Below are positions 477 to 62,176 of a DNA stretch of 64,000 nt, one piece after another. The stretch comes from Heterodontus francisci (Eukaryota): assembly GCF_036365525.1 (NCBI RefSeq), contig NC_090386.1, forward strand, positions 62,514,956 to 62,578,955. Reading direction: 5' to 3'. The notes beneath the pieces are model-generated. The model was not told the DNA's origin, made no database searches, and saw nothing but the letters and a program-made list of their open reading frames with translations. Position 1 is the stretch's first letter. Every line of letters starts with the position of its first letter. The translations under genes were made by a program, and so were the position numbers.

Positions 477-477
477 G

Positions 478-9307: not shown

Positions 9308-9713
9308 CTTTTTTTTTTTTTAATTCTTTCATGGCATGCGGGCGTCGCTGGCAAGACCAGCATTTGTTGCCCACCCCTAATTGCCCTTGAACTAAGTGGC
9401 TTGCTAGGCCATTTCAGAGGGCAGTTAACAGTCGACCACATTTGCTGTGGGTCTGGAATCACATGTAGGTCAGACCAGGTAAGGATGGCAAATTTCCTTC
9501 CTTAAAAAGGACATTAGTGAACCAGATGGGTTTTTACAACAATTGACAATGGTTTCATGGTCACCATTAGACTAGCTTTTAATTCCAGTTTTATCAATTT
9601 AATTCAAATTTCACCATCTGCTATAGGGGAATTCGAACCCATGTCACCAGAGCGTTAGCCTAGATGTCTGGATTACTCGTCTAATGACATTACCACTATG
9701 CCACCTCCTCCCC
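9308..9713 (-). mobile_element. tRNA-derived SINE made of the 5' end and 3' tail of the single-ORF LINE
   Basis: A box TGGCATAGTGG (9693-9703), B box GGTTCGAATTCC (9628-9639). Body is homologous to 43208-43506 and the tail to the LINE 3' end, followed by polyA. Confidence 0.9.
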
Positions 9714-12728: not shown

Positions 12729-15700
12729 CACTAATGTCCTTCAGGGAAGAAAATCTGCTGTCCTTACCTGGTCTGGCCTACACATGACTCCAGACCCACA
12801 GAAATCTGGTTGACTCTTAAATGCCCTCCGAAATGGCCTAGTAAGCCATTCAGTTGTATCTAACTACTACGAAGTCAATAAAGGAATGAATACGGACGGA
12901 CCACTTGGACTTGACCTAGGCACCGGAAAGAAAAACGGCAAATCTAGCCCTGTTGACATTGCAAGGTCCTCCTTACTAACATCTGCAGGCTTGTGTCGAA
13001 GTTGGGAGAGCTGTACCACAGACTAGTCAAGCAATGGCCTGGTATTGTCATACTCACCGAATCATACCTTACAGACAATGGCCCAGACAGAGTCATCATC
13101 ATAGCTGGGTATGTCCTGTCCCACTGGCAGGACAGACCCAGCAGGGGTGGCAGCACTGTGGTATACAGTCGAGAGGGAGTTGCCCTGGGAGTCCTCAACA
13201 TTGACTCCAGACGCTCATGGCATCAGGTCAAACATGGGCAAGGAAATCTCCTGCTGATTACCACCTACCCACCATCCCCCACTCTCCTTCAGCTGCTAAA
13301 TCAGTACTCCATGTTGAACGGCACTTGGAGGAATTACGGAGGGTGGCAAGGGCACAGAATGTACTCTGGGTGGGGGACTTCAATGTCCATCACCAAGAGT
13401 GACTTGGTAGCACCACTACTGACCGAGTCCTAAAGGACATAGCTGCTAGACCGGGTCTGCAGTAGGTGGTGAGGGAACCAACAAGAGGGAAAAATATACT
13501 CGACCTCATCCTCACCAATCTGTCTGCCGCAGGTGCAAATGTCCATGACAGTATTGGTAGGAGTGACCACAGCACAGTTCTGGTGGAGACCAAGTCCCAT
13601 CTTCACACTGAGGATACTCTCCATCGTGTTGTGTGGCATGACCACCGTGTTAAATGGGATAGATTTTAAACAGATCTAGCAATGCAAAACTGGGCATCCA
13701 TGAGGCGCTGTGGGCCATCAGCAGCAGCAGAATTGCACTCAATCACAATCTGCAACCTCATGGCCCGGCATATCCCCCACTCTACCATTACCATCAAGCC
13801 GAGGGACCAACCCGGGTTCAATGAAGAGTGCAGGAGGGCATGCCAGGAGAAGCATCAGGCATACCTAAAAATGAGGTGTCTACCTGGTGAAGCTGCAACC
13901 AGGACTAGTTGCATGCCAAACAGCATAAGCAGCATGCGATAGACAAAGCTAAGAGATCCCATAACCAATGGATCAGATCTAAGCTCTACAGTCCTGCCAC
14001 ATCCAGCTATGAATGGTGGTGGACAATTAAACAACTAACAGGAGGAGGAGACTCCACAAATATCCCCATCCTCAATGGTGGAGGAGCCCAGCATATCAGT
14101 GCGAAAGATAAGGCTGAAGCATTTGCAACAATCTTCAGCCAGAAGTGCCGAGTTGATGATCCATCTTGGCCTCCTCCTGAAATCCCCAGCATCACAGATG
14201 CCAGTCTTCAGCCAATTCCATTCACTCCACGTGATATCAAGAAACGACTGAAGGTACTGGATACAGTGAAGGCTATGGGCCCTGACAATATTCCGGCAAT
14301 AGTCCTGAAGACCTGCGCTCCAGAACTTGCTGCTCTCCTAGCCAAGCTGTGCCAGTACAACACTGGCATGTACCCGGCAATGTGGAAAATTGTCCAGGTA
14401 TGTCCTGTACACAAAAAGCAAGATAAATCTAATCCGGCCAATTACCGCCCCATCAGTCCACTCTCAATCATCAGTAAAGAGATGGAAGGCGTCATCAACA
14501 GTGCCATCAAGCGGCACTTGCTTGGCAATAACATGCTCAGTGACACTCAGTTTGGGTTCCGCTAGGGCCACTCAGCTCCAGACCTCATTACAGCCTTGGT
14601 TCAAACATGGACAAAAAAGAGCTGAACTCCAGAGGTGATGTGAGAGTGACTGCCCTTGATATCAAGGCAGCATTTGACAGAATATGGCATCAAGGAGTCC
14701 TCACAAAACTGGAGTCAATGGGAATCAGGAAGAAAATTCTCCACTGGTTGGAGTCATACCTAGCACAAAGGAAGATTGTTGAGGTTGTTGGAAGTCAATC
14801 ATCTCAGCTCCAGGACATCACTGTAGGTGCTCCTCAGGGTCGTGTCCTAGGCCCAACCATCTTCAGCTGCTTCATCAATGATAAGGTCCGAAGTGGGGAT
14901 GTTCACTGATGATTGCACAATGTTCAGCACCATTCGCGACTCCTCAGATACTGAAACAGACTATGCAGAAATGCAGCAAGGCCTGGACAATATCCAGGCT
15001 TGGGCTGATAAGTGGAGAGTAACATTCGTGCAAACAAGTGCCAGGCAATGACCATCTCCCCTTGACAGTCAATGGCATTACCATCGCTGAATCCCCCACT
15101 ATCAACATCCTGGGGTATCTGTTGACCAGAAACTGAATTGGAGTAGCCATATAAATATATGCAAGAGCACATGAGATGCGAGGAATCCTACGGCGAGTAA
15201 CTCACCTCCTGACTCCCCAAAGCCTGTCCACCAGCTACAAAGCACAAATCAGAAGTGTGATGGAATACTTTCCACTTGCCTGGATGGGTGCAGCTCCAGT
15301 AACACTCAAGAAGCTCGACACCATCCAGAAAAAAGTAGCCCGCTTGATTGGCACTCCATCTACAAATATTCACGCCCGCCACCACCGATGCACAGTGGCA
15401 GCAGTGTGTACCATTTACAAGATGCACCGTGGCAACGCATTCAGGCTCCTTCAACAGCACCTTTCAAACCAGTGACCTCTACCACCTCGAAGGACAAGGG
15501 AAGTAGATGCATGGGAACACCACCATCTGCAAGTTCCCCTCCAAGCCACACACCATCCTGACTTGGAACTACATCGCCGTTCCTTCACTGTCGCTGGGTC
15601 AAAATCCTGGAACTCCCTTCCTAACAGCACTGTAGGTGGACTGCAGCGGTTCAAGAAGGCAGCTCACCACCACCTTCTCAAGGGCAATTAGGAATGGACA

Positions 15701-15738
15701 ATAAATGCTGGCCTAGCCAGAGACGCTCACATCCCAGG
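12729..15738 (+). mobile_element. Near full-length copy of the tRNA-headed single-ORF LINE (APE endonuclease + RT, disrupted)
   Basis: Endonuclease motifs IVILTESYL, LWVGDFNVHH, ILDLILTN and GRSDH. RT motifs YRPISPLS, DIKAAFDRIWH and GAPQG..LGPTIF. Several frameshifts and stops; polyA tail. Confidence 0.93.
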
Positions 15739-16559
15739 AACGAATATAAAAAAAAAATACTCCCTGTGGTGACAGTAGAAATTGTAATTTCCCTGCCATT
15801 AATGCTTCACTTTGAAGTTCCACGGAAACTTCTTAGCTGTTGGCACCCATTTATACAAAATGTCACTGTTGTGAGTTTTTCCTAACATTGGTAATGTGCA
15901 ATCAAATGGCAGTTTATACTGTTTTATAGAAGGATGATTTTTCAACAGTGAACTGCTCAATTCAAGCATCTGTTTTAACATAGAATTTAGATAAAGCGTA
16001 GTTGAAATTTTGTCCGTTAAACAAAAAATTTGGAAATATTGTTGATCAGAGTCAAATAATCAGAATCAAAAGTAGTCTTAACCAGCCTTGCTTAGTGGAA
16101 TGATTCTGTTTAAACAGAAGGACAAAATGGGAAAGTCAGTGGTTTAGTCTCGAACTGACCACTTAAGCTTCCTTTACTTTTCATGATTCTAGAGCAATTA
16201 TTTTATTTCAAACTTTATCAGTTTGTGACTAATTTAATAATTATCGTGCTTGCAGCAAAGTAGTGACTGAGGACGTTAAATCATCAGTAGTTTTGATTCA
16301 TTTTGCAGCTTTACCTCACTTGTGGTCATTTTGACATTATGTTGCCGTCATTGTGACCTACATAGGGTGACCACCAACAACGCATGAAACTGCAAGTTAC
16401 TCAGATAGATATTCATTTCCGAATTGGTTTTCTTCATAGTGTGTTTAAACAAATGGTGATCAAATGTAACATGTCAGATTAAATCCTCAAATTCGAATAT
16501 GATCTCTTCTTGCAGCACCATAGGGGTACTACATGTTTCAGTGGCACTGTTAGAGGAAT

Positions 16560-18199: not shown

Positions 18200-20920
18200 A
18201 ATCTTTCAATCTTTGGCCTCCTTGTCTCGAGAGACAATGGGTAAGCGCCTGGAGGTGGTCAGTGGTTTGTGGAGCAGCGCCTGGAGTGGCTATAAAGGCC
18301 AATTCTAGAGTGACAGGCTCTTCCACAGGTGCTGCAGATAAAATTGGTTGTCAGGGCTGTTACACAGTTGGCTCTCTCCTTACGCTTCTGTCTTTTTTCC
18401 TGCCAACTGCTAAGTCTCTTCGACTCGCCACGCTTTAGCCCCGCCTTTATGGTTGCCCGCCAGCTCTGGCGATTGCTGGCAACTGACTCCCACGACTTGT
18501 GGTCAATGTCACAGGACTTCATGTCGCGTTGGCAGATGTCTTTAAAGCAGAGCCATGGACGGCCGGTGGGTCTGGTACCAGTGACGTGCCCGCTGTACAA
18601 TGTGTCCTTGGGGATCCTGCCATCTTCCATGCGGCTCACATAGCCAAGCCATCTCGGGCGCCGCTGGCTTAGTAGGGTGTATATGCTGGGGATGTTGGCC
18701 TCCTCGAGGACTTCTGTGTTGGAGATACGGTCCTGTCACCTGATGCCAAGGATTCTCCGGAGGCAGCGAAGATGGAATGAATTGAGACGTCGCTCTTGGC
18801 TGACGTACGTTGTCCAGGCCTCGCTGCCATAGAGCAAGGTACTCAGGACACAGGCTTGATACACTTGGACTTTTGTGTTCTGTGTCAGTGCGCCATTTTT
18901 CCACACTCTCTTGGCCAGTCTGGACACAGCAGAGGAAGCCTTTCCCATGCACTTGTTGATTTCTGCATCGAGAGACAGGTTACTGGGTGATAGTTGAGCC
19001 TAGGTTGGTGAACTCTTGAACCACTTCCAGAGTGTGATCGCTGATATTGATAGATGGGGCATTTCTGACGTCCTGTCCCATGATGTTCATTTTCTTGAGG
19101 CTGATGGTTAGGCCAAATTCATTGCAGGCAGCCGCAAACCTGTCGATGAGTCTCTGCAGACACTCTTCAGTGTGAGATGTTAATGCAGCATCGTCAGCAA
19201 AGAGGAGTTCCCTGGTCAGGACTTTTCATACTTTGGTCTTCGCTTTTTGACAGGCAAGGTTGAACAACCTGCCACCTGATCTTACGTGGAGGAAAATTCC
19301 TTCTTCTGAGGACTTGAATGCATGTGAGAGCAGCAGGGAGAAGAAGATCCCAAACAGTGTAGGTGAGAGAACACAGCCCTGTTTCACGCCACTCAGGATT
19401 GGAAAGGGGTCTGATGAGGTGCCGCTATGCTGAATTGTGCCTTTCATATTGTCATGGAATGAGATGATGATACTTAGTAGCTTTGGTGGGCATCCAATCT
19501 TTTCTAGTAGTCTGAAGAGACCACTTCTGCTGACGAGGTCAAAGGCTTTGGTGAGATCAATGAAAGCAACGTAGAGGGGCATCTGTTGTTTACGGCACTT
19601 CTCCTGTAGCTGGCGAAGGGAGAACAGCATGTCAATGGTGGATCTCTCTGCTCGAAAGCCACACTGTGCCTCAGGATAGACACGCTCAGCCAGTTTCTGC
19701 AGCCTGTTTAAAAGCGACACGAGTGAAGACTTTCCCCACTATGCTGAGCAGGGAGATTCCACGGTAGTTGTTGTAGTCACCGCAGTCACCCTTGTTCTTA
19801 TAGAGGGTGATGATATTGGCATCGCGCATGTCCTGTGGTACGGCTCCCTCATTCCAGCACAGGCAAAGCAGTTCGTGCAGAGCTGGAAGTATAGCAGGCT
19901 TGGCACTCTTGATGATTTCAGGGGTAATGCCGTCCTTCCCAGGGGCTTTTCCGCTGGCTAGAGAATCAATGGCATCACTGAGTTCCGATTTTGTTGGCTG
20001 TTCGTCCAGCTCATCCATGACTGGCAGAGACAGGGTTGCATTGAGGGCAGTCTCAGTGACAACATTTTCCCTGGAGTACAGTTCTAGGTAGTGTTCCACC
20101 CAGCGGTCCATTTGTTTGCGTTGGTCAGTGATTGTGTCCCCCGATTTAGATTTGAGGGGGGCAATCTTCTTGACAGTTGGCCCAAAAGCTCTAATGCCAT
20201 CATACATCCCTCTGATATTTCCTATGTCAGAGGCCAGCTGGATATGACTGCATAGGTGTTGCCAGTAGTCATTTGCGCAGCGCCTGGCTGTTCTTTGTGC
20301 AGCTCTTCTGGCAGCTTTAAGTGCTACGGATGTTAACTCGCTGGGGGCTTTCTTGTAGCTCAGCAGTGCAATGTGCTTAGCGGCTATGACAGGTTCCAGC
20401 TCTTCAATGTGAGATTGAAACCAGTCTGCATTCCGCTTCACACAATTGCCATAGGTGGTCATTGCTGAGTCATAGATGGCGTCTCTGATGTGGGCCCACT
20501 TGGTCCCTGCATCCCCTGTGGGAGTGTTTTGGAGGGCTTTTTCAAGTGAATTTAGAAACTTGCTTAACAGCTGTGGATGAGAAATTCTGCTGGTGTTGAT
20601 GCGCGGGCGGCCCTTCTGCTTGGAGTGATGCAGCTTCTTTGGTTTGAGGCTAACCTTGCTGCAGACCAGGGAGTGGTCGGTGTCGCAGTCCGCACTGTGG
20701 AAGCTGCGTGTGATTTGAACACTGTTTAAAGAGGCTCGCCTTGTAACGATGAGGTCCAGCTGGTGCCAACGACGTGATCTTGGGTGCCTCCAAGAAACCT
20801 GGTGACAGGGTTTAGTGTGAAAGAATGAATTGGTGATGCAGAGGTTATGATAGGTACACAACTCAAGCAGTCTCTGTCCATTCTCATTCATCCTTCCAAT
20901 GCCAAAGCGCCCAAGGCAGG
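18200..20920 (-). mobile_element. 5'-truncated RTE-clade LINE (endonuclease C-terminus + RT), frameshifted
   Basis: ORF 19686-20891 (NENGQRLLELC, WHQLDLI, ADCDTDH, YRGISLLS), ORF 19226-19720 (FIDLTKAFD, GVKQGCVLSP) and C-terminal C-x2-C GRACHSRIGLYSH. Confidence 0.93.
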
Positions 20921-21802
20921 AAGGCCTAAAACTACATTAAATCAGAAATGCCTAGAAGAACAGCTTTTGTCAACTTCAGGTCATTTTGAATTTAGTTTGC
21001 TTCAAAAAAGAAACCATACTTGCACCAGATCTTTACAGGGACTAGGTTTCAAGGCTATTGTGTTCAGAGGTCATTTGAAAATTGTCTCAAGCTTTATTCC
21101 CGTGGTTTACTAGATCAGATAAATAGCAATACTGCCAGTTACAACATTCATGAATTTATTACATTATAAATTATAGGGAATTAGAAAGATCATATATATC
21201 TAATCGATTTATTAAGCACCTGCGTTTTAACAGAAGTGCAACTGGCACCAGACGAAAACAAATATCAGAATGGACATTCTTTTTTTGGGGGGGGGGGGGG
21301 GGGGGGGGGGGTAGGGTGGGCGGGGGAAGCAGTTGGGAAAACAAAGAACAATGCTAAAATTGCAGTTTAAATGGAAATGAGCATTTAGATTTCACCATGA
21401 TGAAATCTCACAACCCTCATTGCCACAATGAGTTCAATATTATATAGTGCTGCACAATTTCAGGATGCAGCTTGACCCACAATTCCCAACACAGTCAGTT
21501 CATGATTGTTGTCTGGTCATCACAAGGCAACAACCAGCTGAAGAGACACTTTCCCCACAAAAAGTGAACTAAGGACAATAACACCCTCCCCCCACCCACC
21601 CACAACCCCTTCCTCATTACACTTGCAAATGAACATAATAGTGCGGACAACAAATTGTGCTTTTCATTTGTAGTGGTCTATCTGAAGGCAGACTTCAAAA
21701 CTTGCATTCAAAGAGATAACTCCAGACACAGCAAATAACAAAATAACAAAATAAAACACTTATTGGCACCAGTAACAGAAATACTTCCTTTGTATCATTT
21801 CA

Positions 21803-23175
21803 AGAACAACAAAGAACAAAGATAATTACAGCACAGGAAGAGGCCCTTCGGCCCTCCAAGCCTGCGCCGATCCAGATCCTCTCTCTAAACATGTCGCCTA
21901 TTTTCTAAGCTTCTGTATCTCTTTTCTTCCTGCCCATTCATGTATCTGTCCAGATACATCTTAAAAGACGCCATCGTGCCCGCATCTACCACCTCCGCTG
22001 GCAATGCGTTCCAGGTGCCCACCACCCTCTGCGTAAAGAACTTTCCACGCATATCCCCCCTAAACTTTTCCCCTTTCACTTTGAACTCGTGTCCTCTAGT
22101 AATTGAAACCCCCACTCTGGGAAAAAGCTTCTTGCTATCCACCCTGTCTATACCTCTCATGATTTTGTACACCTCAATCAGGTCCCCCCTCAACCTCCGT
22201 CTTTCTAATGAAAATAATCCTAATCTACTCAACCTCTCTTCATAGCTAGCGCCCTCCATACCAGGCAACATCCTGGTGAACCTCCTCTGCACCCTCTCCA
22301 AAGCATCCACATCCTTTTGATAATGTGGCGACCAGAACTGTACGCAGTATTCCAAATGTGGCCGAACCAAAGTCCTATACAACTGTAACATGACCTGCCA
22401 ACTCTTGTACTCAATGCCCCGTCCGATGAAGGAAAGCATGCCGTATGCCTTCTTGACCACTCTATTTACCTGCGTTGCCACCTTCAGGGAACAGTGGACC
22501 TGAACACCCAAATCTCTCTGGACATCAATTTTCCCCAGGACTTTTCCATTTACTGTATAGTTCACTCTTGAATTGGATCTTCCAAAATGCATCACCTCGC
22601 ATTTGCCCTGATTGAACTCCATCTGCCATTTCTCTGCCCAACTCTCCAATCTATCTATATTCTGCTGTATTCTCTGACAGTCCCCTTCACTATCTGCTAC
22701 TCCACCAATCTTAGTGTCGTCTGCAAATTTGCTAATCAGTCCACCTATACTTTCCTCCAAATCATTAATGTATATCACAAACAACAGTGGTCCCAGCACG
22801 GATCCCTGTGGAACACCACTGGTCACACGTCTCCATTTTGAGAAACTCCCTTCTACTGCTACTCTCTGTCTCCTGTTGCCCAGCCAGTTCTTTATCCATC
22901 TAGCTAGTACACCTTGGACCCCAAGCGCCTTCACTTTCTCCATCAGCCTGCCATGGGGAACCTTATCAAACGCCTTACTGAAGTCCATGTATATGACATC
23001 GACAGCCCTTCCGTCATCAATCAACTTTGTCACTTCCTCAAAGAATTCTATTAAGTTGGTAAGACATGACCTTCCCTGCACAAAACCATGTTGCCTATCA
23101 CTGATGAGCCCATTTTCTTCCAAATGGGAATAGATCCTATCCCTCAGTATCTTCTCCAGCAGCTTCCCTACCACT
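21803..23175 (-). mobile_element. Young 5'-truncated CR1 (HER1-like) LINE with an open RT frame
   Basis: Uninterrupted 429-codon ORF 21885-23174 (YMDFSKAFDKVPH, GVPQGSVLGP, FADDTK). 3'UTR gggccgaagggcctcttcctgtgctgta with a (TTTGTTC)-type tail. Confidence 0.95.
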
Positions 23176-23422
23176 CCCGTTGAGAGTTACAAAGCAATAG
23201 TGAGACATTAGTCTTTTTTTTTTTTAAGTTTTACAGAATCCAATAGGAATGCCTAACAATTCTGCAAAGGTTTCTCCTAAGCATGGCATGCAAAGGAACT
23301 TAAGGCATCTTTGTCTTTAAAATATAAATTTATGGTACAATTTTGCTCAGGTTAGTTTATTCAAAGTTTCTACTGTCATCCTCTCTGTTAAGAGTAGGAT
23401 GGCCTGACCAGCCGACAGCTCT

Positions 23423-23833
23423 TTTTTTTTTATTTCCAAAATATACTTTATTCATAAAAATCTGTAAAAATTACATTGCCAAACAGTTTCCAAACAGCAC
23501 CAAAAAATACAAACATTGCAAGGGAGATCAGTTTCCTTCAATACTGTCATGAGTTTCTTCACAACCCTTCCGTTTCACAATTGTCATGTCAATTACAGTT
23601 TTACATTTACAGCAATTCAGAATATTAACGATACAGTTCGAGGGGTTTCCCATGGATCCAGCCCCTCAGTCCAGCTTGGTGGGGGAACCTTACACTGTGG
23701 TCTTTCCCCATTGAGCCTTTGCTGCGGCTGCCCCAAGCTTTAGTGCGTCCCTCAGCACGTAGTCCTGGACCTTGGAATGTGCCAGTCTGCAACATTCGGC
23801 GGTGGACAACTCTTTGCGCTGGAAGACCAGCAA
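23423..23833 (-). mobile_element. Short 3' fragment of a Tx1/L1-clade LINE with a 17 bp TSD
   Basis: Nearly identical to 59938-60350. TSD gaccagccgacagctct at 23406-23422 and 23834-23850. Confidence 0.95.
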
Positions 23834-23943
23834 GACCAGCCGACAGCTCTGTTGCAGCTATAAATGCCACTGATTGTTTAGACGGAAATGTACTTCTTTC
23901 TGCATACCAACACTGATCTTTGTAGTGCATCATCTTACACTCA

Positions 23944-26434: not shown

Positions 26435-26797
26435 TAAAGGCCTGCTACCTGACCCGAACCCGACAGGACCTGACGACATGAGTCGGGTTCGGGTCACACT
26501 TCTGAGTCCGGCATTCGGGTTCGGGTCAGGTCGGGCCAGGCCGGATAGGACACGGTCGATCACTGCCTCTGGTAAGTGACTCTAATGTTAATTTACTTTT
26601 TGGACTTGAAAGGTGGTTTTGTTAGTTATTTTAAGCTAGTGCAGGTAAGGAACAAAGTGAAAAATGGAAGGTAGGTTAACTGTTGGTTGGGTTAGGTGCA
26701 GGAAAAAAAAAATGGAAGGACTTGGGCCAGGTCGGGATCGGATGGGGTTTTGTCGGGCTCGGGTGTGGTCTCATTTGCAGACCCGAGCAGGCCTTTA
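26435..26797. mobile_element. hAT-type MITE
   Basis: Perfect 12 bp TIR TAAAGGCCTGCT/AGCAGGCCTTTA, 8 bp TSD ctttgacc/ctttgact, subterminal GACCCGA/TCGGGTC repeats. Confidence 0.88.
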
Positions 26798-26869
26798 CTT
26801 TGACTAACAAATCAATGATATTCTGCAGTTACTAATTTATTAAATCACACTCTCTCCCCCACTTTAAAT

Positions 26870-35315: not shown

Positions 35316-37880
35316 GCTAAGTGTTGCACCATCAATGACTTCACTTATATAAGTAAAATAAACCATATTTTCCAATTTTAAATTAAATTAAATTCTGGGC
35401 TCCAAATCAGACTCCAAAATACTGGACTAAAAGCAGGGGTTACGGAGGACCGAGTGTCAAATCCAAAGTACCACCCTTGCTTTGCCCCTAACCTGGAATC
35501 AGACCAACACAAAAAGTTGTTGCTACGTTTAAGACTCTCCAAACCAAACTACTGAGAAATTCACACAAGTAAATATCAAACACTCACTTTCTCCTCTTCT
35601 CTCTTTCAGTTCCACTTACCAAGCTCCAGAGAGTTTGGTCAAAGATTGGCAATAGCCAAGGCTTGGGGGTTCCTGAAAGTGTATTATACTGGATTTTAAC
35701 CACCTAAAACCACAAGGCTTACCAGTGCAAAGTTACCTGCCAGATCAGACCACTATCAATTAAAGCATATAGCTTGCAGGGTTATCTGGAGCTGACTGGA
35801 AAGAACTTGAGCTCTCCATGACAAATTTACCCCTCATTGCGTATAAGCAAAGCTAAAAAAAAGTACACAGGACTATGCCAACCTTTCTGGCTCAGATGGC
35901 CAGAGGGTTGGCTCAAATTGCAATTCTTCCATCAGGTGTACTGTATTACAGCCAACATGATAGCCAAGATGTTCCACTTAGCCCTGCTCTCTCTTTGCCT
36001 CCTTCTCCACCATTGACAGCCACACCTGATGATAGTCACTGGTTGGTCATTAGACAACTACAGAGTAGGAGTTTGAGTACTCCACTTGGAAGACAGAAAA
36101 CTTCAAGCATTTCTCAAAACACACATCATCATCCACCCAAACACATCATGAGTAAACACATGGTTCCACCAGTTAAGATGCAGAGCAACAACTGCTTACT
36201 TCTTGCACCCAGTTATGACAGGCATCAAACCTTGGAGATCGAAGCAAATCATTTTATAACCAGCCTTGAAATAACACCTTCTGCCAAGGCTTAGAATTTC
36301 CTCATCAGCTGTGTGACAGATGTGCCTTCAGCGTGGTGCAAAGACTGATACATGGCAGATTATGATATGCAGCCACCTTGATGTTCTAGGCATCAACATG
36401 CAATGCCTGCACGAGGCTACTTGAACACATCTGCTAAATGCATTTTCTTGTAGAAGTAGTTTTGAAAAAGTGATGCATCTGCTGTGAGGTTAACTGTCCC
36501 TCTTGGGTGCTGAGTGACAGTCTCATGTAGGCCAGAGCGCTCTCACTGCAATAACTTCCCTTTTCTAACCAGAAATTCATCTGTCAACTTGGTTTTTGCA
36601 CATATGCCACATGGAACTCTTTGCATGCCATTAACTTATAAAATGTTCAGGACTACTATTTGGATACATCTTATATGCCACAAGTTTAACCAACATGAGG
36701 ACTCGCAGTTACTGAAAAAAAAAGATAGAAAATCCAAAAGCACCTTAGATCACTCAGCGAAGCCATGGCAAACTCTGCAAGCTGACAGACATATATCAGA
36801 ACCTCAGGTACTGACCAAACAATTGGGACAAATGTTCCCGGTGTTTTTCAGTCAATACCTTCAGGATTCCCATTTCAATGGTGAAAAGCCATATACAGCA
36901 TTTAACTGCAGCCAGCACCATATCCCACTGTTAGGTCCACTTTTGGATGGTCAGTAGAGATTACCTGATTCCCAGATGAGTCCAACAAACAAGCAATGCA
37001 GTTCTTTCAGTAATGCCTGGAATGGGCACTTCTATGATGATCCTTGAAGATACCAAAGATATCACTGATGAAACTGGCCAATCTGGCTTCATTCTCAATA
37101 GTTTTAGCAGGCCTCTATCAACACAAGTGTCTCAGAGCTGGAGAAAGCAGCTCATATAAAATCTACAATTTTTTTTTTATATTCATTCATGGGATGTGGG
37201 CGTTGCTGGCTAGGACAACATTTATTACCCATCCCTAATTCCCCTCGAGAAGGTGGCGGTCAGCTGCCTTCTTGAACCGCTGCAGTCCATGTGGTGTAGG
37301 TACAACTACAGTGCCATTGGGAAGAGAGTTCCAGGATTTTGACCCAGCAACAGTGAAGGAACGGCGGCGATACTGTTCCAAGTCAGGATGGTGTATGGCT
37401 TGGAGGGGAACTTGCAGGTGGTGGTGTTCCCATGCATCTGCTGCCCTTGTCCTTCTAGGTGATAGAAAAGTCACAGGTTTGGAAGGTGCTATCTAAGGAG
37501 CTTTGGTGCATTGCATCTTGTAGATGGTACATACTGCTGCCACTGTGTGTCAGTGGTGGAGGGAATGAATGTTTGTGGATGGAGTGTCAATCCAGAGGGC
37601 TGCTTTGTCCTGGATGGTGTCGAGCTTCTTGATTGTTATTGGAGCTGCACTTGTCCAGGCAAGTGGAGAATGTTTCATCACACTCCTGAATTGTGCCTTT
37701 TAGATGGTGGACAGGCTTTGGGGAATTGGGAGGCGAGTTACTCATCACAGGATTCTTAGCCTCTGACCTGCTGTTGTAGCCACGGTATTTATATGGCGAC
37801 TCCAGTTCAGTCTCTGGTCAATGGTAACCCCCAGGATCTTGATAGTGGGGGATTCAGCAATCGCAATGACTCTGAATGTC

Positions 37881-40800
37881 ATAGAATCATATAATCATAG
37901 AAAGTTTAAAGCACAGAGAGAAGCCACTTGGCCCATCATTCCTGTGCCAGCCGAAAAACGATCCACCTTTTCTAATCCCACCTTCCAGCATTTAGTCTGT
38001 AGCTCTGCAGATTACAGCACTTGAGGTGCATATCCGGACTCCTTTTAAATGAGTTGAGAATCTCTGCCTCAGCTACCCTTTCAGGCAGTGAGTTCCAGAC
38101 CCCCACCACCCTCTGGGTGAAAAAGGTTTTTCCTCATCTCCCCTAATTTTTCTACCAATCACTTTAAATCTATGCCCCCTCGTCACTGACCTCTCTGCTA
38201 CAGTAAATAGACCCTTCACCTCCACTCTAACCACGCCCTTCAAAATTTTGTACATTTCAATCAGATCTCCTCTCAGCCTTCTCTGTTCCAAGGAGAACAA
38301 CCCCAGCCTATCCAATCTTTCCTCATAGCTGCATGTTTCCAGTCCTGGCAGCATCCAAATAAATCTCCTCTGTACCCTCTATAGTGGAATTACATCCTTT
38401 CTGTAATGAGGTGACCAAAACTACATACAGTACTCAAGTTGTGGCCTAACCAAAGAGTTATACAGTTCCAGCAAAACCTCCCTGCTCTTATATTCTATAC
38501 CGCAGCTAATAAAAGAAAGGATTCCATATGCTTTCTTAACCATCTTATTGATCTGTCCAGCTACCTTCAGGGAACTGGGGACATTCACTCCAATGTCCCT
38601 CACTTCCTCTACACTTCTCAGTATTTTCCCATTAATCGTGTATTTCTTTGCCTTGTTTGACCTCCCCAAATGCTCAAACTTCTCCAGGTTGAATTCCATT
38701 TGCCACTTTTCTGCCCATCTGACCAGACCATCAATCTTCCTGCAGCCTACAGCTATCCACCTCACTATCTACCACACGGCCAATGTGTCATCTGCAAACT
38801 TCTTGATCATGCCCTCTGCATTTACATCCAAATCGCTTATACCACAAAAAAACAGGGGACCCAGTATTGAGCCCTGCGGAATACCACTAGAAACAGCCCT
38901 CCAGTCGCTAAAACACCCGTCAATTACCCTTTGTTGCCTGCCACTGAGCCAATTTTGTATCCACCTTGCTGCATTTCCCTGGATCCCATGGGATTTTATT
39001 ATTTTTTTTAAACCAGTCTGCCATGTGGGACCTTGTCAAAAGCCTTGCTAAAATCCATGTAGACCACATCAACTACACTACCCTCATCTACCTTCCTTGT
39101 TACTTCTTCAAAAAATTTGATCAAGTTGGTCAAACAATATCTTCCCTTAACAAATCCATGCTGACTATCCTTGTTTAACCTATGCCTTTCTAAATGACAG
39201 TTATCCTACCTCTCAGAATTGATTCCGAAAATTTGCCTACTACGGAGGTTAGACTGACTGGCCTGTAATTATTGGGTCTATCCCTCGCTCCCTTTTTAAA
39301 CAGAGGTACAACCTTAGTAGTCGTCCAATCCTCTGGCACCACACCTGTATCCGGGGAGGACTGGAAAATGATGGTCAGACCTTCTACGAGTTCCTCTCTT
39401 GCTTCTTTTAATAGCCTAGGGTATATTTCATGTGGCCCTTATGATTTATCAACTTTCAAGGATGCAAATCCCTGAATACTTCCTCTCTCCCTTGTTCATC
39501 ACATTCAGTCCTTCACACTCCGCCTCCTTAACTACAATATCTGCATCATCCCCCTCTTTTGTGAAGACAGACGCAAATATTCATTAAGAACCATACCAAC
39601 ATCGCCTGCCCCTACAGGTTACCTTTTTGGTCTTTTATAGGCCTGGCTCTCTCCTTAGTTATCCTTTTGCTCTTAATGTATTGATAAAACATCTTTGGGT
39701 TCACCTTAATTTTGCTCGCCAATATTCTTTCATGCCCTCTCTTTGCTTTACTAATTTCCTTTTTGATTTCACCCCTCCACTTTCTAGAAAGCGGAGAGGA
39801 GTTTTGAGTTCTCGGTGTCATACATAAGCTTTCCTTTTCTGCCTTATCTTACCCTGTAGGCTTCTTGATATCCATGGGGCTCTAGATTTGGCCATTTCAC
39901 CCTTGTTCTTTGTGAGAACATGTTTACTCTGACCCCCTTGAATCTCCCCATTGAATGCCTCCCACTGCTCTGACACTGATTTACCTTCAAGTAGATGTTT
40001 CCAGTCCACTTTCGCGAAATCACTACTCAGCTTAGTAAAATTGGCCTTGCCCCAATTGAGAACTTTAACTCCTGTTCTATCCTTGTCCTTTTCCATAATT
40101 ATGTTAAAATTAACGGAATTATGATCACTACCACCAAAATGCTCTCCAACTGCCACCCCTTCCACCTGCCCATCTTCATTTCCTAAAACCAAGTCTACAA
40201 CTGCATCCTCTCTTGTTGGACTTGCTACATACTGGGCAAAAAGGTTCTCCTGAATGCACCTCAAGAATTCTGCTCCCTCAATTCTTTTCACACTAAAACT
40301 ATCCCAGTTAATATTGGGGTAGTTAAAATACCTTACTATTATTTCCCTATTGTTCTTGCACTTCTCAGAGATTTGCCTACATATCCGCTCTTCTATTTCC
40401 CTCTGTTTGGGGGTAGAGCATGGCTACCCGACCCTAACCCAACAACACGTGTCAGGTTCGGGTCTGGTCACTCTTCCGGGTCCGGCATTCGGGCTCAGGT
40501 CAGGCTGGGTCGGACACAGTGACAGCCAGGACGTCAAGGTGGGAAACACTCTGCACTAGTCTGCAGTGAGCGATTACATCCAAGATAGAGCACAACCTCT
40601 TTAATATAATCAACTTTATTCCGGTGGTCAGGTCGGGCGAAGGAAAAAATGAAAGGACTCGGGTCGGGTGTGGTTCTGTCGGGCTCGGGTCCGGTTTCAT
40701 TTGCAGACCCAAGCAGGGCTTTATTTGGGGGTCTATAGTACACTCCTAGCAGTGTGATTGCCCTTTTTTTGTTCTTTAGCTCAATCCATATGGCCTCATT

Positions 40801-40980
40801 TGATGAACCTTCCAACATACCATCCTTCCTCACAGCTGTAATAGTTTCCTTCACCAAAATTGCCACTTCCCCTCCTTTCTTATCCCCCTCCCTATTGCAT
40901 CAGAAAACCCTGTAACCAGGAACGTTGAGCTGCCATTCCTGTCCCTCCTTAAGCCATGTTTCTGTAATAGCTATAATATC
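37881..40980 (-). mobile_element. CR1 (HER1-like) LINE, ORF2 endonuclease to RT, nested
   Basis: AITETWL, LLGVYYRPPN, DLVLGNE, GGSDHNSV and LEQRRLRGDLIE peptides; (ATTCTATG)-type microsatellite tail at 37881-37900. Confidence 0.9.
40414..40723. mobile_element. hAT-type MITE nested in the CR1 endonuclease region
   Basis: Perfect 8 bp TSD tttggggg (40406-40413, 40724-40731), imperfect TIR TAGAGCATGGCT/AGCAGGGCTTTA, TCGGGTC repeats. Confidence 0.88.
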
Positions 40981-43949
40981 AAGGGCAGATGGTTAGATTC
41001 TGTCTTGTTGGAGATGGTCATTACCTGTCACTTGTGTAGCATGAATGTTACTTGCCACTTATCAGCCCAAACCTGGATATTGTCCAAGTCTTGATGCATT
41101 TCTACATGGACTGCGTCAGTACCTGAGGAGTCGTGAATGGTGCTGAACATTGTGCAATCATCAGCGAAAGCAAACATCCCCACTTCTGACCTTATGATTG
41201 AAGGAAGGTCATTGATGAAGCAGCTATAGATGGTTGGGCCCAGGACACTACTCTGTGGAACTCCTCTAGTGATGTCCTGGAGCTCAGATGATTGACCTCC
41301 AACAACCACAACCATTTTACTTTGCGCTAGGTAAGACTCCAACCAGCGGAGTTTTCCTCCTGATTCCCATTGACTACAGTTTTGCTAGGGCTCCTTGATG
41401 CCATACTCGGTCAAATGCTGCCTTGATGTCAAGGGCAGTCACTCTCACCTCTGGAGTTCAGCTCTTTTGTCCATGTTTGAACCAAGGATGTAATGAGGTC
41501 AGGAGCTGAGTGGCCCTGGCGAAACCCAAACTGAGCATCACTACGCAGGTTATTGCTGAGCAAGTGCCGCTTGACAGCGCTGTTGACGACACCTTCCATC
41601 ACTCTACTAATGGTCGAGAGTGGACTGTAATTGGTCGGGTTGGATTTGTCCTGCTTTTTGTGTACAGGACATACCTGAGCAATTTTCCCATTGCCAGGTT
41701 AACGCCTGTGTTGTAGCTGTGCTGGGACAGCTTAGCTAGGGGCGCGGCAAATTCTGGAGCACAAGTCTTCAGTGCTAGTGCCCGAATGTTGTCACGGCCC
41801 ATAGCCTTTGCAGTATCCAGTGCCTTCAGTTGTTTCCTGACATCACGCGGAGTGAATGGAATTAGCTGAAGACTGGCATCTGTGATGCTGGGGACTTCAG
41901 GAGGAGGCCGAGATGAATCAGTCACTCGGCACTTCTGGCTGAAGATTGTTGCAAATGCTTCTGCCTTATCTTTCGCACTGATGTGCTGGGCTTCCTCCAT
42001 CACTGAGGATGGGGATATTTGTGGAGCCTCCTCCTCCAATTATTTTTGTTTAATTGTTCACCACCATTCACGACTGGATGTGGCAGGACTGCAGAGTTTA
42101 ACTCTGTCTATCACATGCTACGTACACTGTTTGGCATGCAAGCAATCCTGGTTGTAGCTTCACCAGGTTGACATCTCATTTTGAGGTATACCTGGTGCAG
42201 CTCCTGGCATGCCCTCCTGCACTCTTCATTGAACCAGAGTTGGCCCCCCGGCTTGATGGTAATGGTAGAGTGGGGGATATGCCAGGCCATGAAGTTACAG
42301 ATTGTGGTTGAGTACAATTCTGCTGCTGCTGATGGCCCACTGCGCCTCATTGATGCCCAGTTTTGTGTTGCTAGACCTGTTTGAAATCTATCCCATTTAG
42401 CATAGCAGTAGTGCCACACAACACGATGGAGAGTATCCACAATGTGAAGATGGGACTTCGTCTCCACAAGGACTGTGCGTTGGTCACTCCTACCAATACT
42501 GTCAACAACAGATGCTTCTGTGGCAGGTAGATTGGTGAGGACAAGATCAAATATGTTTACCCCTCTTGTTGGTTCCCTCACCACCTGCCACAAACCATGT
42601 CTAGCAGCTCTGTCCTTTAGGACTCGGCCAGGAGACGTGCTACTGAGCCATTCTTGGTGAGAGACATTGAAGTCCCCCACCCAGAGTACATTCTGCACTC
42701 TTGCCACCCTCAGTGCTTTCTCCAAGTGCTGTTCAACATGGAGGAATACTGATTCATCAGCTGGGGGGGGGGGGGGGGGGGGGGGCGGGGATGGGTGGGT
42801 AGGTGGTAATCAGCAGGAGGTTTCCTTGCCCATGTTTGACCTGATACCATGAGACTTCATGGTGTCTGGAGTCGATGTTGAGGACTCCCAGAGCAACTCC
42901 CTCCACTGTGCTGCCACCTCTGGTGGGTCTGTCCTGCTGGTGGTACAGGACATACCTGGGGAATGGTGATGGCGATGTCTGGAACATTGTCTGCAAGGTA
43001 TGATTTGGTGAATATGACTGTCAGGCCATTGCTTGACTCGTCTGTGGGACAGCTCTCCAAACTTTGGCACAAGTCTCCAGATGTTAATAAGGAGGACTTT
43101 GCAGGGGCCAACAGGGCTGGGTTTGCCGTTGTCATTTCCAGTGCCTAGGTGAATGCCAGGTGGTCCGTTCAGTTTCATTCCTTATTGACTTTGTAGCGGT
43201 TTGATACAACGGAGAGGCTTGCTAGGCCATTTCAGAGGGCATGTAAGAGTCAACCACATTGCTGTGGGTCTGGAGTTACATGTAGGCCAGAGAAGGTAAG
43301 GACAGCAGATTTCCTTCCCTAAAGGACATCAGTGAACTAGATGGGTTTTTTCGACAATGGTTTCATGGCCATCATTAATTCCAGATTTATTAATTGAATT
43401 GCAATTCCACCTTCTGCGATAGTGGAATTCGAACCCATGTCTCCAGATCTATACCCTAGGTCTGAGTTACTAGTCCAGTAATAATACCACTATGCCACCG
43501 CTTCCCTGCAATTCAGCTACCTACTCCCACAAATCCCCTACATCAGCCTGTGCATCATGGGCAGCTCTGAAATAAGTCGGCAGTTCACACCACTTATCTC
43601 AAAAGATCACCACCATCCCCCCAAAAAACTCCATTTAGAGCAGACTTCAAGAATCTGGCACAAAATGTCATCCACACTTGACAGCCAACCAATAAGCCAG
43701 ACAATGAAGTATGAAACATATTGCCACTCAGCCAACTGATGGGGACGGGGGGTGGGGGGGGGGGGGTGGAGAAGAAGTGGAGAAATAGGATAGACAAGAG
43801 AGGGAAACTCTCACCACTGTTGCCTCACATCCATTACAAATCAGATTCCAGGTGAAGCCTTAATCTAGCTTTCCCAAAATATACAATCAGGATTGGAGAT
43901 CTGAAATTAGTTGCCCTGTCGGTTTGTTCAAAAGATACTGCAAATTAAG

Positions 43950-55791: not shown

Positions 55792-58776
55792 ACAGCAATG
55801 TGGTTGATGCTTAAATGCCCTCTGAAATGGCCGAGCAAGCTACTCAGTTGTATCAAACTGCTACAAGATCGAAGAAAAGGAATGAAACCAGACGGACCAC
55901 ACAGCATCGACCTAGGCACCGGAAACGACAACGGCAAACCCAGCACTGTCGACCCTGCAAAGTCCTCCTTACTAACATCTGGGGGCTTGTGCCAAAATTG
56001 GGAGAGCTGTCCCACAGACTAGTCAAGTAACAGCCCGCCATAGTCATACTCACGGAATCATACCTTGCAGACAATGTCCCAGACACCACCATCACCATCC
56101 CTTGATATATCCTGTCCCACTGCAGGATAGGCCCACCAGAGGTGGCGGGTGGACAGTCGGGAAGGAATTGCCCTGAGAGTCCTCAACATTGACTCTGGAC
56201 CCCATGAGGTCTCATGGCATCAGGTCAAACATGGGCAAGGAAACCTCCTGCTGATTACCACCAACTGCCCCCTCTCAGCTGATGGTGCTTCCCCATGTTG
56301 AACACCACTTGGAAGAAGCACTGAGGGTAGCAAGGGCACAAAATGTACTCTGGGTGGGAGACTTCAATGTCCATCACCAAGAGTGGCTCGGTAGCACCAC
56401 TATTGACCGAGCTGGCCAAGTCCTAAAAAACATAGCTGCTAGACTGGGTCTGTGGCAGGTGGTGAGGGAACCAAGAGGAAAAAACATACTTGACCTCATC
56501 CTCACCAATCTACCTGTTGCAGATGCATCTGTCCATGACAGTATTGGTAGGAGTGACCACCGCACAGTCCTTGAGGAGACCAAGTCCCGTTTTCATACTG
56601 AGGGTACCCACCATCGTGTTGTGTGGCACTGCTGCCATGCTAAATGGGATAGATTTCGAACAGATCTGGGAACTCAAAATTGGACATCAGCAACAGCAGA
56701 ATTGTATTCAACCACAATCTGTAACCTCATGGCCCGGCATATCCCCCACTCTACCATTACCATCAAGCCAGGGACCAAACCTGGTTCAATGAAATGTGCA
56801 GGAGGGCATGCCAGGAGCAGCACCAGGCAAACCTCAAAATGAGGTGTCAGCCTGACGAAGCTATAACACAGGACTAATTGCATAACAAACCATGGAAGAA
56901 GCATGCAATAGACAGGGCTAAACACTCCCACAACCAACGAATCAGATCTAAGCTCTGCAGTCCTGCCACATCCAGTTGTGAATGGTGGTGGACAATTAAA
57001 CAACTAACAGGAGAAGGAGGAGGCTCATAAATATCCCCATCCTCAACGATGGGGGAGCCCAGCACATCAGTGCCAAAGACAAGGTTGAAGCATTTGCATC
57101 CATCTACAGCTAGAAGTACCAACTGGATGATCCATCTCGGCCTCCTCCTGAGATTCTCAGCATCACAGATGCCAGTCTTCAGTCAATCCGATACATTCCA
57201 CGTGATATCAAGAAACAGCTGAAGGCACTGGAAAATGTAAAGGCTATGGGCCCTGACAACATTCCGGCAATAGTACTGAAGACTTGTGCTCCAGAACTAG
57301 CCGCGCCCCCTAGCCAAGTTGTTCCAGTACAGCTACAACACTGGCATCTACCTGGCAATGTGGAAAAGTGCCCAGGGATGTCCTGTGCACAAAAAGCAGG
57401 ACAAATCCAACCCGGCCAATTTCCGCCCTATCAGTCTACTCCTGATAATCAAAGTGATGGAAGGGGTCGTCGACAGTGCTATCAAGTGACACCTGCTCAG
57501 CAATAACCTGCTCACTGATGCTCTGTTTGGGCTCCGCAGGGGCCATTCAACTCCTGTCCTCATTACATCCTTTGTCCAAACATGGACAAAAGAGTTGAAC
57601 TCCAGAGGTGAGGTGAGAGTGACTGCCCTTGACATCAAGGCAGCATTTAACTGAGTATGGGATCAAGGAGTCAATGGGAATCGGGGGGAAACTCTCCGCT
57701 GGTTGGAGTCATACCTAGCACAAAGGAAGATGGTTGTGGTTGTTGGAGGTCAATCCTCCCATTCCCAGGACATCACTGCAGGTGTTCCTCAGGGTAGTGT
57801 CCTGGGCCGAACTATCTGTGACTGTTTCATAAATGACCTTCCCTCCATCATAAAGTCAGAAATGGGGATGTTTGCTGATGACTGCACAATGTTCAGCACC
57901 ATTTGCGACTCCTCAGATACTAAAGCAATCCATGTCCATATGCAGAAAGACCTGGACAACATCCAGACTTGGGCTGATAAGTGGCAAATAACATTCACGC
58001 CACACAAGTGCCAGGTAATGACCATCACCAACAAGAGAGAATCTAACCATCTCCCTGTGACATTCTATGGCATTACTATCGCTGAATCTCCCATTATCAA
58101 CATCCTGGGGTTCACCATTGACGAGAAACTGAACTGGACCAGCCACATAAATGCTGTGGCTACAAGAGCAGGTTAGATCCTGGGAATTCTACAGCGAGTA
58201 GCTCACCTCCTGTTTCCCCAATGCCTGTCCACCATCTACAAGGCATAAGTCAGGAGTGTGATGGAATACTCTCCACTTGCCTGGATGGGTGCGGTTGCAA
58301 CAACACTCAAGAAGCTCAACACCGTCCACGACATAGCAACCTGTTTGATTGGCACCCCATCCACCACCTTCATCATTCACTCCCTTCACCACTGACACAG
58401 AGTGGCAGCAGTGTGTACCATCTACAAGATACACTGCAGCAACTCACCAAGGCTTCTTCCACAGCACCTTCCAAACCCACAGCCTCTTCCACCTAGAAGG
58501 ACAAGGGCAGCAGATGCATGGGAACACCACCACCTGCAAGTTCTCCTCCAAGCCACACACCATCCTGACTTGGAACTATATCGCTGTCCCTTCACTGTTG
58601 CTGGGTCAAAATCCTGGAACTCCCTTCCTAACAGCACTGTTGGTGTACATACACCCCAAGGACTGTCACGGTTCAAGAAGGTAGCTCACTACCACCTTCT
58701 CCAGGGCAATTTGGGATGGGCAATAAATGCTGGCCTAGCCAGCAAGACCCACATCCCCCGAACTAATATGAAAAAG
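55792..58776 (+). mobile_element. Near full-length copy of the tRNA-headed single-ORF LINE (disrupted)
   Basis: KVLLTNIWGL, LWVGDFNVHH, GRSDH, GVPQGSVLG and FADDCT motifs. Starts inside the SINE-shared leader and ends in the family tail. Confidence 0.93.
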
Positions 58777-59496: not shown

Positions 59497-59790
59497 TCAA
59501 CAACTTGCATTTATATAGCACTTATAACCGTAGTGAAATGTACCAAGGTGCTTTACAGGAGTGTTAACAAAGAGAATTTGACACTGAGCCACAAAAGGAG
59601 ATATTTGGACAAGTGAAGTGGGTTTTAAAGATAATCTTCAAGGAGGAGAGAGAGCAAGAGAGGTGGAGAGAAGGAATTCCAGAGCTTAAGGCCGAGGCAG
59701 CTGAAGGCATAGCCATCAATTATGGAGCAATTAAAATTGGGGATGCACAAGAAGCTATCATTGGAGGAGCACAGAGGTCTCACAAGCAGT
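59497..59790 (-). mobile_element. L2 3' fragment
   Basis: Homologous to 10200-10500 (caacaacttgcatttatatagc...). Confidence 0.7.
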
Positions 59791-59937
59791 GCTGTAAAGT
59801 CACTTAACTCATGGATTCAGTCCTTCATGCCACCTTTCAACTATCGTGTTTCCTAAGACCTAGGAAACCCAGCCATCTGTGGTTAAAAATAGAAGCACTG
59901 TTAAAATGAAAGCATGCACCCTCATTAAAATATTTAA

Positions 59938-62176
59938 TTTTTTTTTTATTTCCAAAATATACTTTATTCATAAAAATCTGTAAAAATTACATTGCCAAAC
60001 AGTTTCCAAACAGCACCAAAAAATACAAACATTGCAAGGGAGATCAGTTTCCTTCAATACTGTCATGAGTTTCTTCCCAACCCTTCCGTTTCACAATTGT
60101 CATGTCAATTACAGTTTTACATTTACAGCAATTGAGAATATTAACGATACAGTTCGAGGGGTTTCCCATGGATCCAGCCCCTCAGTCCAGCTTGGTGGGG
60201 GAACCTTACACTGTGCTCTTTCCCCATTGAGCCTTTGCTGCGGCTGCCCCAAGCTTTAGTGCGTCCCTCAGCACGTAGTCCTGGACCTTGGAATGTGCCA
60301 GTCTGCAACATTCGGTGGTGGACAACTCTTTGCGCTGGAAGACCAGCAAGTTTCGGGCAGACCAAAGGGCGTCTTTCACCGAATTGATAGTCCTCCAGCA
60401 GCAGTTGATGTTTGTCTCGGTGTGCGTCCCTGGGAACAGCCCGTAGAGCACAGACTCCTGTGTTACAGAGCTGCTTGGGATGAACCTTGACAAAAACCAC
60501 TGCATCTCTTTCCACACCTGCTTTGCAAAGGCACATTCCAGGAGGAGGTGGGCGACCGTCTCTTCCCCACCACAGCCAACGCGGGGGCACTGTGCGGAGG
60601 GGGCGAGACTTCGGGTGTGCATGAAGGATCTGACGGGGAGGGCCCTTCTCACCACCAGCCAAGCTACGTCTTGGTGCTTGTTTGAAAGTTCTGGTGATGA
60701 GGCATTCCGCCAAATGACTTTGACGGTCTGCTCGGGGAATCATCCGACATGATCCACCGTTTCCTTTTCCCGTAGGGCCTTGAGGACATTCCGTGCAGAC
60801 CACTGCCTGATGGACCGGTGGTCAAAAGTGTTTTCCCGCAGAAACTGCTCCACGAAGGATAGGTGGTACGGCACCGCCCAACTGCATGGAGCGTTCCGCG
60901 GCAATGTGACCAGGCCCATCCTTCGCAACACCGGGGACAGATAGAACCTCAGCACGTAGTGACACTTGGAGTTTGCGTACTGGGGATTTACACACAGCTT
61001 GATGCAGCCGCACACGAAGGTGGTCATCAGGATGAGGGCCACGTTGGGTACATTTTTCCCGCCCTTGTCCAGAGATTTGAACATCGTGTCCCTCCGGACC
61101 CGTTCCATTTTAGATCCCCAGGCGAAGCGGAAAATGGCTCGGGTGACTGCCACGGCGCAGGAGTGGGGTATGGGCCAGACCTGCGCCACGTAGAGCAACA
61201 ACGTGAGCGCCTCGCACCTGATGACCAGGTTCTTACCCACAATGGAGAGAGATCGCTGCCCCCACATGCCCAACTTTTGTCGTACCTTGGCTACTCGCTC
61301 CTCCCATGTTTTGGTGCACGCCCCGGCCCTTCCGAATCATATCCCCAGCACCTTCAGGTAATCTGACCTGACGGTGAAGGGGACACGGGATCGGTCAGCC
61401 CAGTTCCCAAAGAACATGGCCTCGCTCTTGCCGTGGTTAACTTTGGCTCCCGAGGCCAGTTCGAACTGGTCGCAGATGCTCATCAGTCTGCGCACGGACA
61501 GCGGATCCGCGCAGAAGACGGCGACGTCTTCCATGTACAGGGAGGTTTTGACCTGAGTGCCTCCGCTGCCTGGGATTGTCACCCCTCTTATGCTCGCATC
61601 CTTCCTAATAGACTCAGCAAAGGGTTCAATACAGCAAACAAACAAGACAGGGGAGAGAGGACAGCCCTGTCTGACTCCAGATTGGATCGGGAAACTTTCC
61701 GATTCCCACCCGTTGATTGAGACTGCGCTACTGATGTTTGTGTAGAGCAGTTGGATCCAATTGCAGATTCCCTCCCCAAACCCCATTTTGGAAAGCACGT
61801 CCATCATGTAGGTGTGCGATATCCTGTCAAAAGCCTTCTCCTGGTCCAGGCTGATGAGGCAGGTGTCCACCCTCCTGTCCCGTACGTAGGCGATCGTATC
61901 CCTGAGTAGCGCGAGACTATCAGAGATCTTCCTGCCGGGTACAGTACAGGTCTGATCGGGGTGAATCACCAGCTCCAGAGCAGACTTGACTCGACTGGCT
62001 ATGACTTTGGACAGAATCTTGTAATCAACATTAAGCAGTGAGATGGGCCCCCAATTTCTGATTTCTGCCCTCTCCCCCTTCTGCTTGTAAATGAGGGTGA
62101 TGATGCCTTTTCTCATGGATTCTGACATGCTGCCGGCCAGGAGCATACTCTCGTATACTTCCAGCAGGTCCGGGCC
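59938..62176 (-). mobile_element. 5'-truncated Tx1/L1-clade LINE ORF2 (RT + C-terminal zinc knuckle)
   Basis: ISLLNVDYKILSK, LDQEKAFDRI, GVRQGCPLSP, LYMEDV and C-terminal CPRVGCGGEETVAHLLLEC. Three collinear ORFs in one frame; AATAAA and polyA. Confidence 0.93.

Follow-up and report, generated by a model that had tools for sequence, protein, structure and literature searches.

A Zenon LINE of sharks and rays that opens with a tRNA-derived, SINE-type head and is probably transcribed by RNA polymerase III

Introduction

Two kinds of retrotransposon are commonly set apart: long interspersed elements (LINEs), which are coding and transcribed by RNA polymerase II (Pol II), and short interspersed elements (SINEs), short and non-coding, whose transcription relies on RNA polymerase III (Pol III). 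This work concerns a LINE that begins with a tRNA-derived head, found in a stretch of 64,000 nt from the shark Heterodontus francisci (assembly GCF_036365525.1, contig NC_090386.1, positions 62,514,956 to 62,578,955, forward strand), referred to here as the window. Its closest described relatives are the Zenon LINEs that Stuart et al. (2026, PMC13343379) report from five elasmobranchs; according to the available text of that paper, all of them lack a first open reading frame (ORF1), which is ordinary for Zenon, and all carry poly(A). Among SINEs the closest are SacSINE1 and LmeSINE1, tRNA-headed DeuSINEs of sharks, chimaera and coelacanth (available text of PMC5499810 and PMC3747384). Exchange of modules among SINEs has been described, and in bivalves a partnership of SINEs with Zenon (available text of PMC7245038 and PMC11481361).

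We find that the LINE is a fixed head-to-tail unit with a selected single frame and almost no T-runs on its coding strand, and that the genome's SINE is made of the two ends of this LINE. The element is an elasmobranch member of Zenon and is neither a SINE nor a canonical CR1. Because a tRNA-type promoter head is combined with a near absence of coding-strand T-runs, we consider it probable that this Zenon-type LINE of sharks and rays is transcribed by Pol III, with the head's A and B boxes as the promoter.

Results

Layout of the element

The window copy lies on the minus strand (43506-37171) and measures about 3.24 kb once a nested LINE is removed. It was aligned over positions 8-3278 of L072, a natural full-length copy used as the reference. 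APE denotes the endonuclease type, RT reverse transcriptase and ORF open reading frame in the following list.

37171..43506, minus strand: decayed full-length tRNA-headed Zenon LINE, split by a nested CR1; 85-86% identity to L072
43411..43506, minus strand: head derived from a tRNA; about 20 additional nt separate its anticodon arm from its T arm
43487..43497, minus strand: Pol III A box, TGGCATAGTGG
43424..43435, minus strand: Pol III B box, GGTTCGAATTCC
43208..43410, minus strand: SINE body, common to the 390-nt SINE; its 3' limit is the fixed junction CAGTT/GTA
43222..43224, minus strand: TAG closing the long frame on its upstream side; TAG in 33/51 LINE leaders
43176..43178, minus strand: conserved ATG, 1 base out of the endonuclease frame; 59/63 copies
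40975..43221, minus strand: single ORF, 5' part, with a basic extension, APE endonuclease from 43100, and RT
about 37882..40974, minus strand: nested CR1-type LINE, 5'-truncated, same strand, microsatellite tail
37235..37881, minus strand: single ORF, 3' part; the stop is TAG at 37237-37235
37169..37247, minus strand: 3' tail common to LINE and SINE, with poly(A) end

The two sequences in the head are identified as A and B boxes by comparison with the box consensus. The head was not called by ARAGORN or Rfam; its best match was Thr(AGT), at z 7.2, and the donor is tentative because the true tRNA set used for comparison consisted of Thr and Lys genes only. We infer that the SINE body of the leader is of Deu type. 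The endonuclease motif KVLL.NIW lies at 43100, 406 nt past the start of the element, the ORF of this copy is disrupted by stops and frameshifts, and the poly(A) occupies 37178-37169. The nested LINE, presumably a CR1 given its 66% DNA identity to the window element at 22000-23150 and the form of CR1 tails, is bracketed by TGATATT/TGACATT (6/7 match). An earlier note made from the sequence alone had read this locus as an autonomous SINE-headed retrotransposon. The start at 43506, both boxes, KVLL.NIW, the poly(A), the nested CR1 and the length that it gave are all present in the sequence, and Pfam domains on natural copies bear out its assignment of endonuclease and RT.

The head as the 5' end of the family

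In rough first-look searches of the 6.0-Gb genome, the head together with the junction had 9801 candidates, the endonuclease had 10838 and the SINE 7828. Among copies picked by endonuclease DNA alone, 21/29 reach position 1-10 of the head, and the same holds for 14/20 copies picked by RT protein alone, which were taken from 94 matches for their long open frames. The remaining selected copies are truncated at scattered places or, in the case of L248 only, internally deleted. Near the 5' end, sequence is shared in 1 of 3003 flank pairs. Since most selected copies start at the head and their flanks share almost no sequence, there is no upstream ORF1. The junction CAGTT/GTA is fixed in 51 LINE leaders, and no copy ran on into an ORF1 or showed a variable junction. 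Hence the earlier note was right that a SINE lying beside a LINE by chance does not explain the locus, and its view of the element as autonomous and SINE-headed is supported by the fixed junction together with seven published consensuses (below). It was also right that ORF1 is missing, although this is no oddity, being ordinary for Zenon.

The window holds two further copies of the LINE:

12729..15754, plus strand: second LINE copy, 5'-truncated within the SINE body, without tRNA head
55792..58775, plus strand: third LINE copy, 5'-truncated within the SINE body, without tRNA head

These begin at L072 positions 183 and 252, respectively. In both, the last part of the SINE body is kept along with the junction, as the earlier note had it, but neither carries the full leader that it ascribed to them. 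The points of 5' truncation seem to be clustered, at about 100 (2 copies), 183-187 (3), 314-326 (3) and 423-429 (2), as counted among L032-L060, L231-L250 and the window copy at 12729; such clusters could be pause sites of the RT or alternative RNA ends.

In 28 full-length copies the best exact flank match averages 3.07 nt, compared with 2.75 nt for mismatched pairs, the longest is 6 nt, and no family-wide long target site duplication (TSD) was found. The 7/8 match AATTGCAG/AATTGTAG that the earlier note had taken as a candidate TSD is present in the window, but it is weak as support because long TSDs are no trait of the family. In 11/28 full-length copies both flanks could be matched to neighbouring stretches of a single other repeat. 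Where the case is clear, the flanks overlap by 0-7 nt or have lost a little sequence, and a few extra bases often precede the head. In L066, L082 and L108 these extra bases repeat nearby flank, as after template jumps at integration. An A-rich tail ends the 28 full-length copies. Contigs of four runs from four organisms (4 of 24 runs listed) span the element in all its 30 bins and cross the junction; the skip that marks the SINE form is visible in them as well.

Placement of the family

Relatives of the RT are elements of invertebrates, with identities that reach about 49%, and a fragment of Heptranchias perlo, a shark, with 79%. It is about 31% identical to the CR1-like RT of the window. A quick tree of 35 rows, none of them a named Zenon reference, placed it with butterfly, crustacean and amphioxus rows and apart from the window's CR1-like RT (SH-aLRT 91). 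The element has features of Zenon (no ORF1, a poly(A) tail, and a single frame with APE endonuclease and RT) and departs from canonical vertebrate CR1 in having no esterase ORF1 and in the position of its RT. As in SINE2 elements, its head is of tRNA origin and contains A and B boxes, but the element is not of 100-700 bp and non-coding: it spans 3.27 kb and holds a selected frame of 975 codons. Five species have contributed the seven elasmobranch Zenon consensuses that are published, and every one of these opens with the same head, body and junction, whereas one coelacanth and two hagfish Zenon consensuses open without the head (first 400 nt of each, by eye). Neither a pair of A and B boxes nor similarity to the leader was found in metagenome relatives, for which upstream sequence covers part of 80 loci. 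Matches in the PDB were confined to L1 and R2 proteins. Four database gene models (P0008, P0009, P0128 and P0123) contain pieces of the headed LINE at 58-79% identity, and such absorbed pieces probably give rise to spurious exons where sharks are annotated.

The coding frame

A frame free of majority stops runs over positions 307-3231 (975 codons), preceded by about 306 nt that are closed in all three frames. The headed natural copy L233 has 937 open codons with PF03372, PF14529 and PF00078. Across 40 copies, variants common to at least five copies comprise 30 synonymous and 27 non-synonymous changes, with a dN/dS of 0.28 compared with 0.83 for singletons; the source genes have therefore been selected for the protein, and the frame of the headed LINE is under purifying selection.

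There is no in-frame ATG between the TAG at 304 and position 1159, which is past the endonuclease. An ATG out of frame by one base is kept at about position 353, no conserved slippery site was seen by eye after it, and an early in-frame TAA occurs in 5/63 copies, a young group. In the headless relatives L132, L134 and L194 a normal AUG opens the frame, and the endonuclease follows after a short extension. In a minority of LINE leaders (3/51 by eye; L003, L062, L066 and L057 are listed) an ATG stands in frame at codon position 343, near the start of these relatives, and this is possibly a relic or revertant of an ancestral start. Read-through of the TAG, or a TTG start after it, is disfavoured: the TTG is followed by TAA in 5/63 copies, as it is in the Squalus consensuses, and in Rhincodon and Squalus the spacing, by eye, does not preserve the frame.

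Depletion of T-runs on the coding strand

Four T residues are enough to terminate Pol III in vertebrates. The polymerase halts at T-runs of the non-template strand (bioRxiv 10.1101/2021.08.27.457903, available text). In 25 full-length copies aligned over 3294 columns, the coding strand has no conserved TTTT, compared with AAAA at 18 positions; conserved triplets number 6 for TTT, 62 for AAA, 63 for CCC and 52 for GGG, and neither T3VT nor T3VT2 is conserved. TTTT is wholly absent from 16/25 of these copies and from 18/20 RT-selected copies. Seven long natural frames contain 4-6 T-runs of at least 3, compared with 12-14 after synonymous codon shuffling; in each of the seven, 0/1000 shuffles were as low, and runs of A, C and G were normal. 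As controls we used the metagenome relatives with frames of at least 600 aa (47 of the 80 loci). All 47 of these headless elements have at least three TTTT runs, including six with no more than 24% T, and four other LINE-like stretches of the window have 10-24. A T-run stands just before the poly(A) in several copies (L064, L068, L072, L077, L079 and L094), with TTTT at the column before the poly(A) in 20% of the 25 copies; this may be decay of the tail or, in some subfamilies, a built-in terminator.

The SINE made of the two ends of the LINE

The 390-nt SINE of this genome corresponds to the first 320 and the last 75 bases of the LINE. One copy lies in the window:

9312..9712, minus strand: SINE copy, 401 nt, with the LINE head and body joined directly to the last ~75 nt of the LINE

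In 24/27 SINE copies the body meets the last ~75 nt of the LINE exactly where LINE-specific sequence begins. Leaders of LINE and SINE differ at 17/320 majority columns, which indicates that the head has evolved with the LINE. The LINE-type leader also occurs in 3/27 SINE copies (the split between leaders is weakly supported), and these three have the LINE-type tail too. In architecture and host group the SINE agrees with what is described for SacSINE1, and it is putatively assigned to that family.

Other repeats in the window

The nested CR1 contains an insert of about 300 nt (40415-40718), rich in repeats of the GGGTC(A/G)GG type; on its two sides, at 40401-40414 and 40719-40732, stand the units of a direct repeat of 14 nt (12/14 match). 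Pieces of it match window positions 26435-26800, and it is possibly a small non-autonomous DNA transposon. Two further minus-strand LINEs with RT domains lie at 18203-23186 and 59500-62197; the first is CR1-like and has an upstream frame of 416 aa without Pfam matches. Positions 23422-23834 and 59938-60350 are 99% identical and represent a young repeat.

Discussion

Our results suggest a scheme in which Pol III would start at base 1 of the LINE, directed by the A and B boxes within the head, would read through 3.3 kb because selection has purged oligo-T terminators from the frame, and would stop where the flank has its first T-run. Such an RNA would bear no cap and, having no in-frame AUG before the endonuclease, would need a non-standard start of translation. 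AUG-independent initiation, or reinitiation after short leader frames, may be the most likely such start, although this is a weak step of the scheme. The protein would then bind the 3' tail and insert the RNA of both LINE and SINE by target-primed reverse transcription. The account in full, put tentatively, is of a captured SINE promoter from which Pol III makes a 3.3-kb mRNA, with a frame kept purged of U-runs since before sharks and rays split and translated without cap or in-frame AUG by way of the Deu body; its chance is a little short of even.

Several observations weigh against this account. The absence of TTTT is, by itself, borderline (P of 0.04-0.18 by codon shuffle and 0.013-0.08 by base shuffle), and the three loci of the nearest lineage are also poor in runs (2, 7 and 4 in 1.7-2.3 kb). 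Moreover, the depletion counts as one evolutionary observation, because all shark copies form one lineage. The processivity of Pol III is described as poor and SINEs as limited to 100-700 bp (PMC10886601, available text). No complete, intact frame from leader to stop was present among the copies examined, and no translation start was found for the headed LINE. The folding stability of the SINE body is ordinary (z -1.1 to +0.4), with no stable structure resembling an internal ribosome entry site.

It is also possible, though unlikely, that the LINE is transcribed by Pol II, through host read-through or a promoter in the body, with the head as a passenger or as a processing signal by which the RNA is trimmed to a precise 5' end. 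LINEs are described as Pol II transcripts (Kojima 2024, PMC10886601, available text), a capped RNA would be easier to translate, and the borderline TTTT test is compatible with this explanation. However, it leaves unexplained a run depletion that is specific to T and to one strand, and the boxes are kept across five species while the nearby head diverges (published consensuses, by eye; the B box of Hypanus is short by one base). A different possibility is that the headed form is non-autonomous, its frame untranslated and its copies mobilised by a headless Zenon. The late first AUG and the early TAA of the young group would fit, as would the 3/49 copies that begin at 314-326, near the junction, but purifying selection acts on variants common to headed copies and the truncated copies have no shared alternative 5' end; we regard this possibility as very improbable. 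The very abundance of LINE and SINE, each with thousands of candidates, could in principle bring a SINE beside a truncated LINE by chance, or an assembly artefact could do so. This explanation is refuted by the start at the head in selected copies and in the published consensuses. Indeed, the junction is fixed in 51 leaders and, in the opening 400 nt of the consensuses, in five other species, the LINE leader departs from the usual SINE leader at the 17 columns noted above, and no SINE tail stands at the junction.

Transcription by Pol III is compatible with either order of origin of the two elements. We lean towards capture of the head, in the ancestor of sharks and rays, from an older Deu-type SINE. 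Capture is favoured because reports place the SINE in chimaera and coelacanth, in neither of which a headed LINE was seen. The reverse order, in which the headed LINE is the older of the two and loss of its coding middle gave the shark SINE, is a possibility of some weight, if somewhat doubtful. The SINE holds solely 5' and 3' sequence of the LINE, the exact junction of body and tail favours a deletion product of the LINE, and the three SINE copies with LINE-type leader and tail point the same way. Set against this are the report of the SINE family in chimaera and coelacanth (PMC5499810, available text), the confinement of the body motif to seven consensus rows, all elasmobranch Zenons (first 400 nt per row), and the far wider occurrence of Deu domains, with other heads and tails (PMC4824008, available text).

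An abundant Zenon family of sharks and rays thus appears to cross the line between LINE and SINE. If the proposed scheme is true, the family would provide a natural long Pol III mRNA whose coding sequence has been reshaped to avoid Pol III terminators, as well as a direct assay for the role of the conserved Deu body. Should that body aid translation, a long-unexplained conserved part of SINEs would gain a job, and LINE and SINE would be one element in two lengths. In annotation, headed LINEs will have their 5' ends masked as SINEs.

R2 is a single-frame LINE whose transcript is not made by Pol II and is probably translated without a cap or standard AUG; it is co-transcribed with rDNA by Pol I and is site-specific. 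The shark LINE is like R2 in its single frame and, under the proposed scheme, in a transcript that Pol II does not make, and it differs from R2 in endonuclease and clade. SacSINE1 and LmeSINE1 (available text of PMC5499810 and PMC3747384) resemble the 390-nt SINE in having a tRNA head, a conserved body and a tail in common with a CR1-4_DR-like LINE; unlike the headed LINE they are non-coding, and their reported homology to a LINE is confined to the tail. The bipartite SINEs of RTE and Vingi LINEs (Kojima 2018, PMC5786205) are likewise composed of a LINE's 5' and 3' parts; there a tRNA head was added to a non-coding derivative, whereas in the shark the coding LINE itself is headed. No description of a tRNA-headed Zenon or of a Pol III LINE was found in the literature searched, which lay outside Repbase, Dfam and most subscription journals. 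The nearest systems are the published Zenons of CarCar, HypSab, RhiTyp, ScyCan and SquAca, which are of the same family, lack ORF1, end in poly(A) and measure 3.2-3.3 kb in 5/7 cases. The available text of PMC13343379 has 0 matches for tRNA or Pol III, so that the head goes unremarked there; nor is it remarked that T-runs are depleted, that an AUG is missing or that the LINE is linked with the SINE. Hence the sequence family is published, and its architecture and likely transcription by Pol III appear to have gone unremarked.

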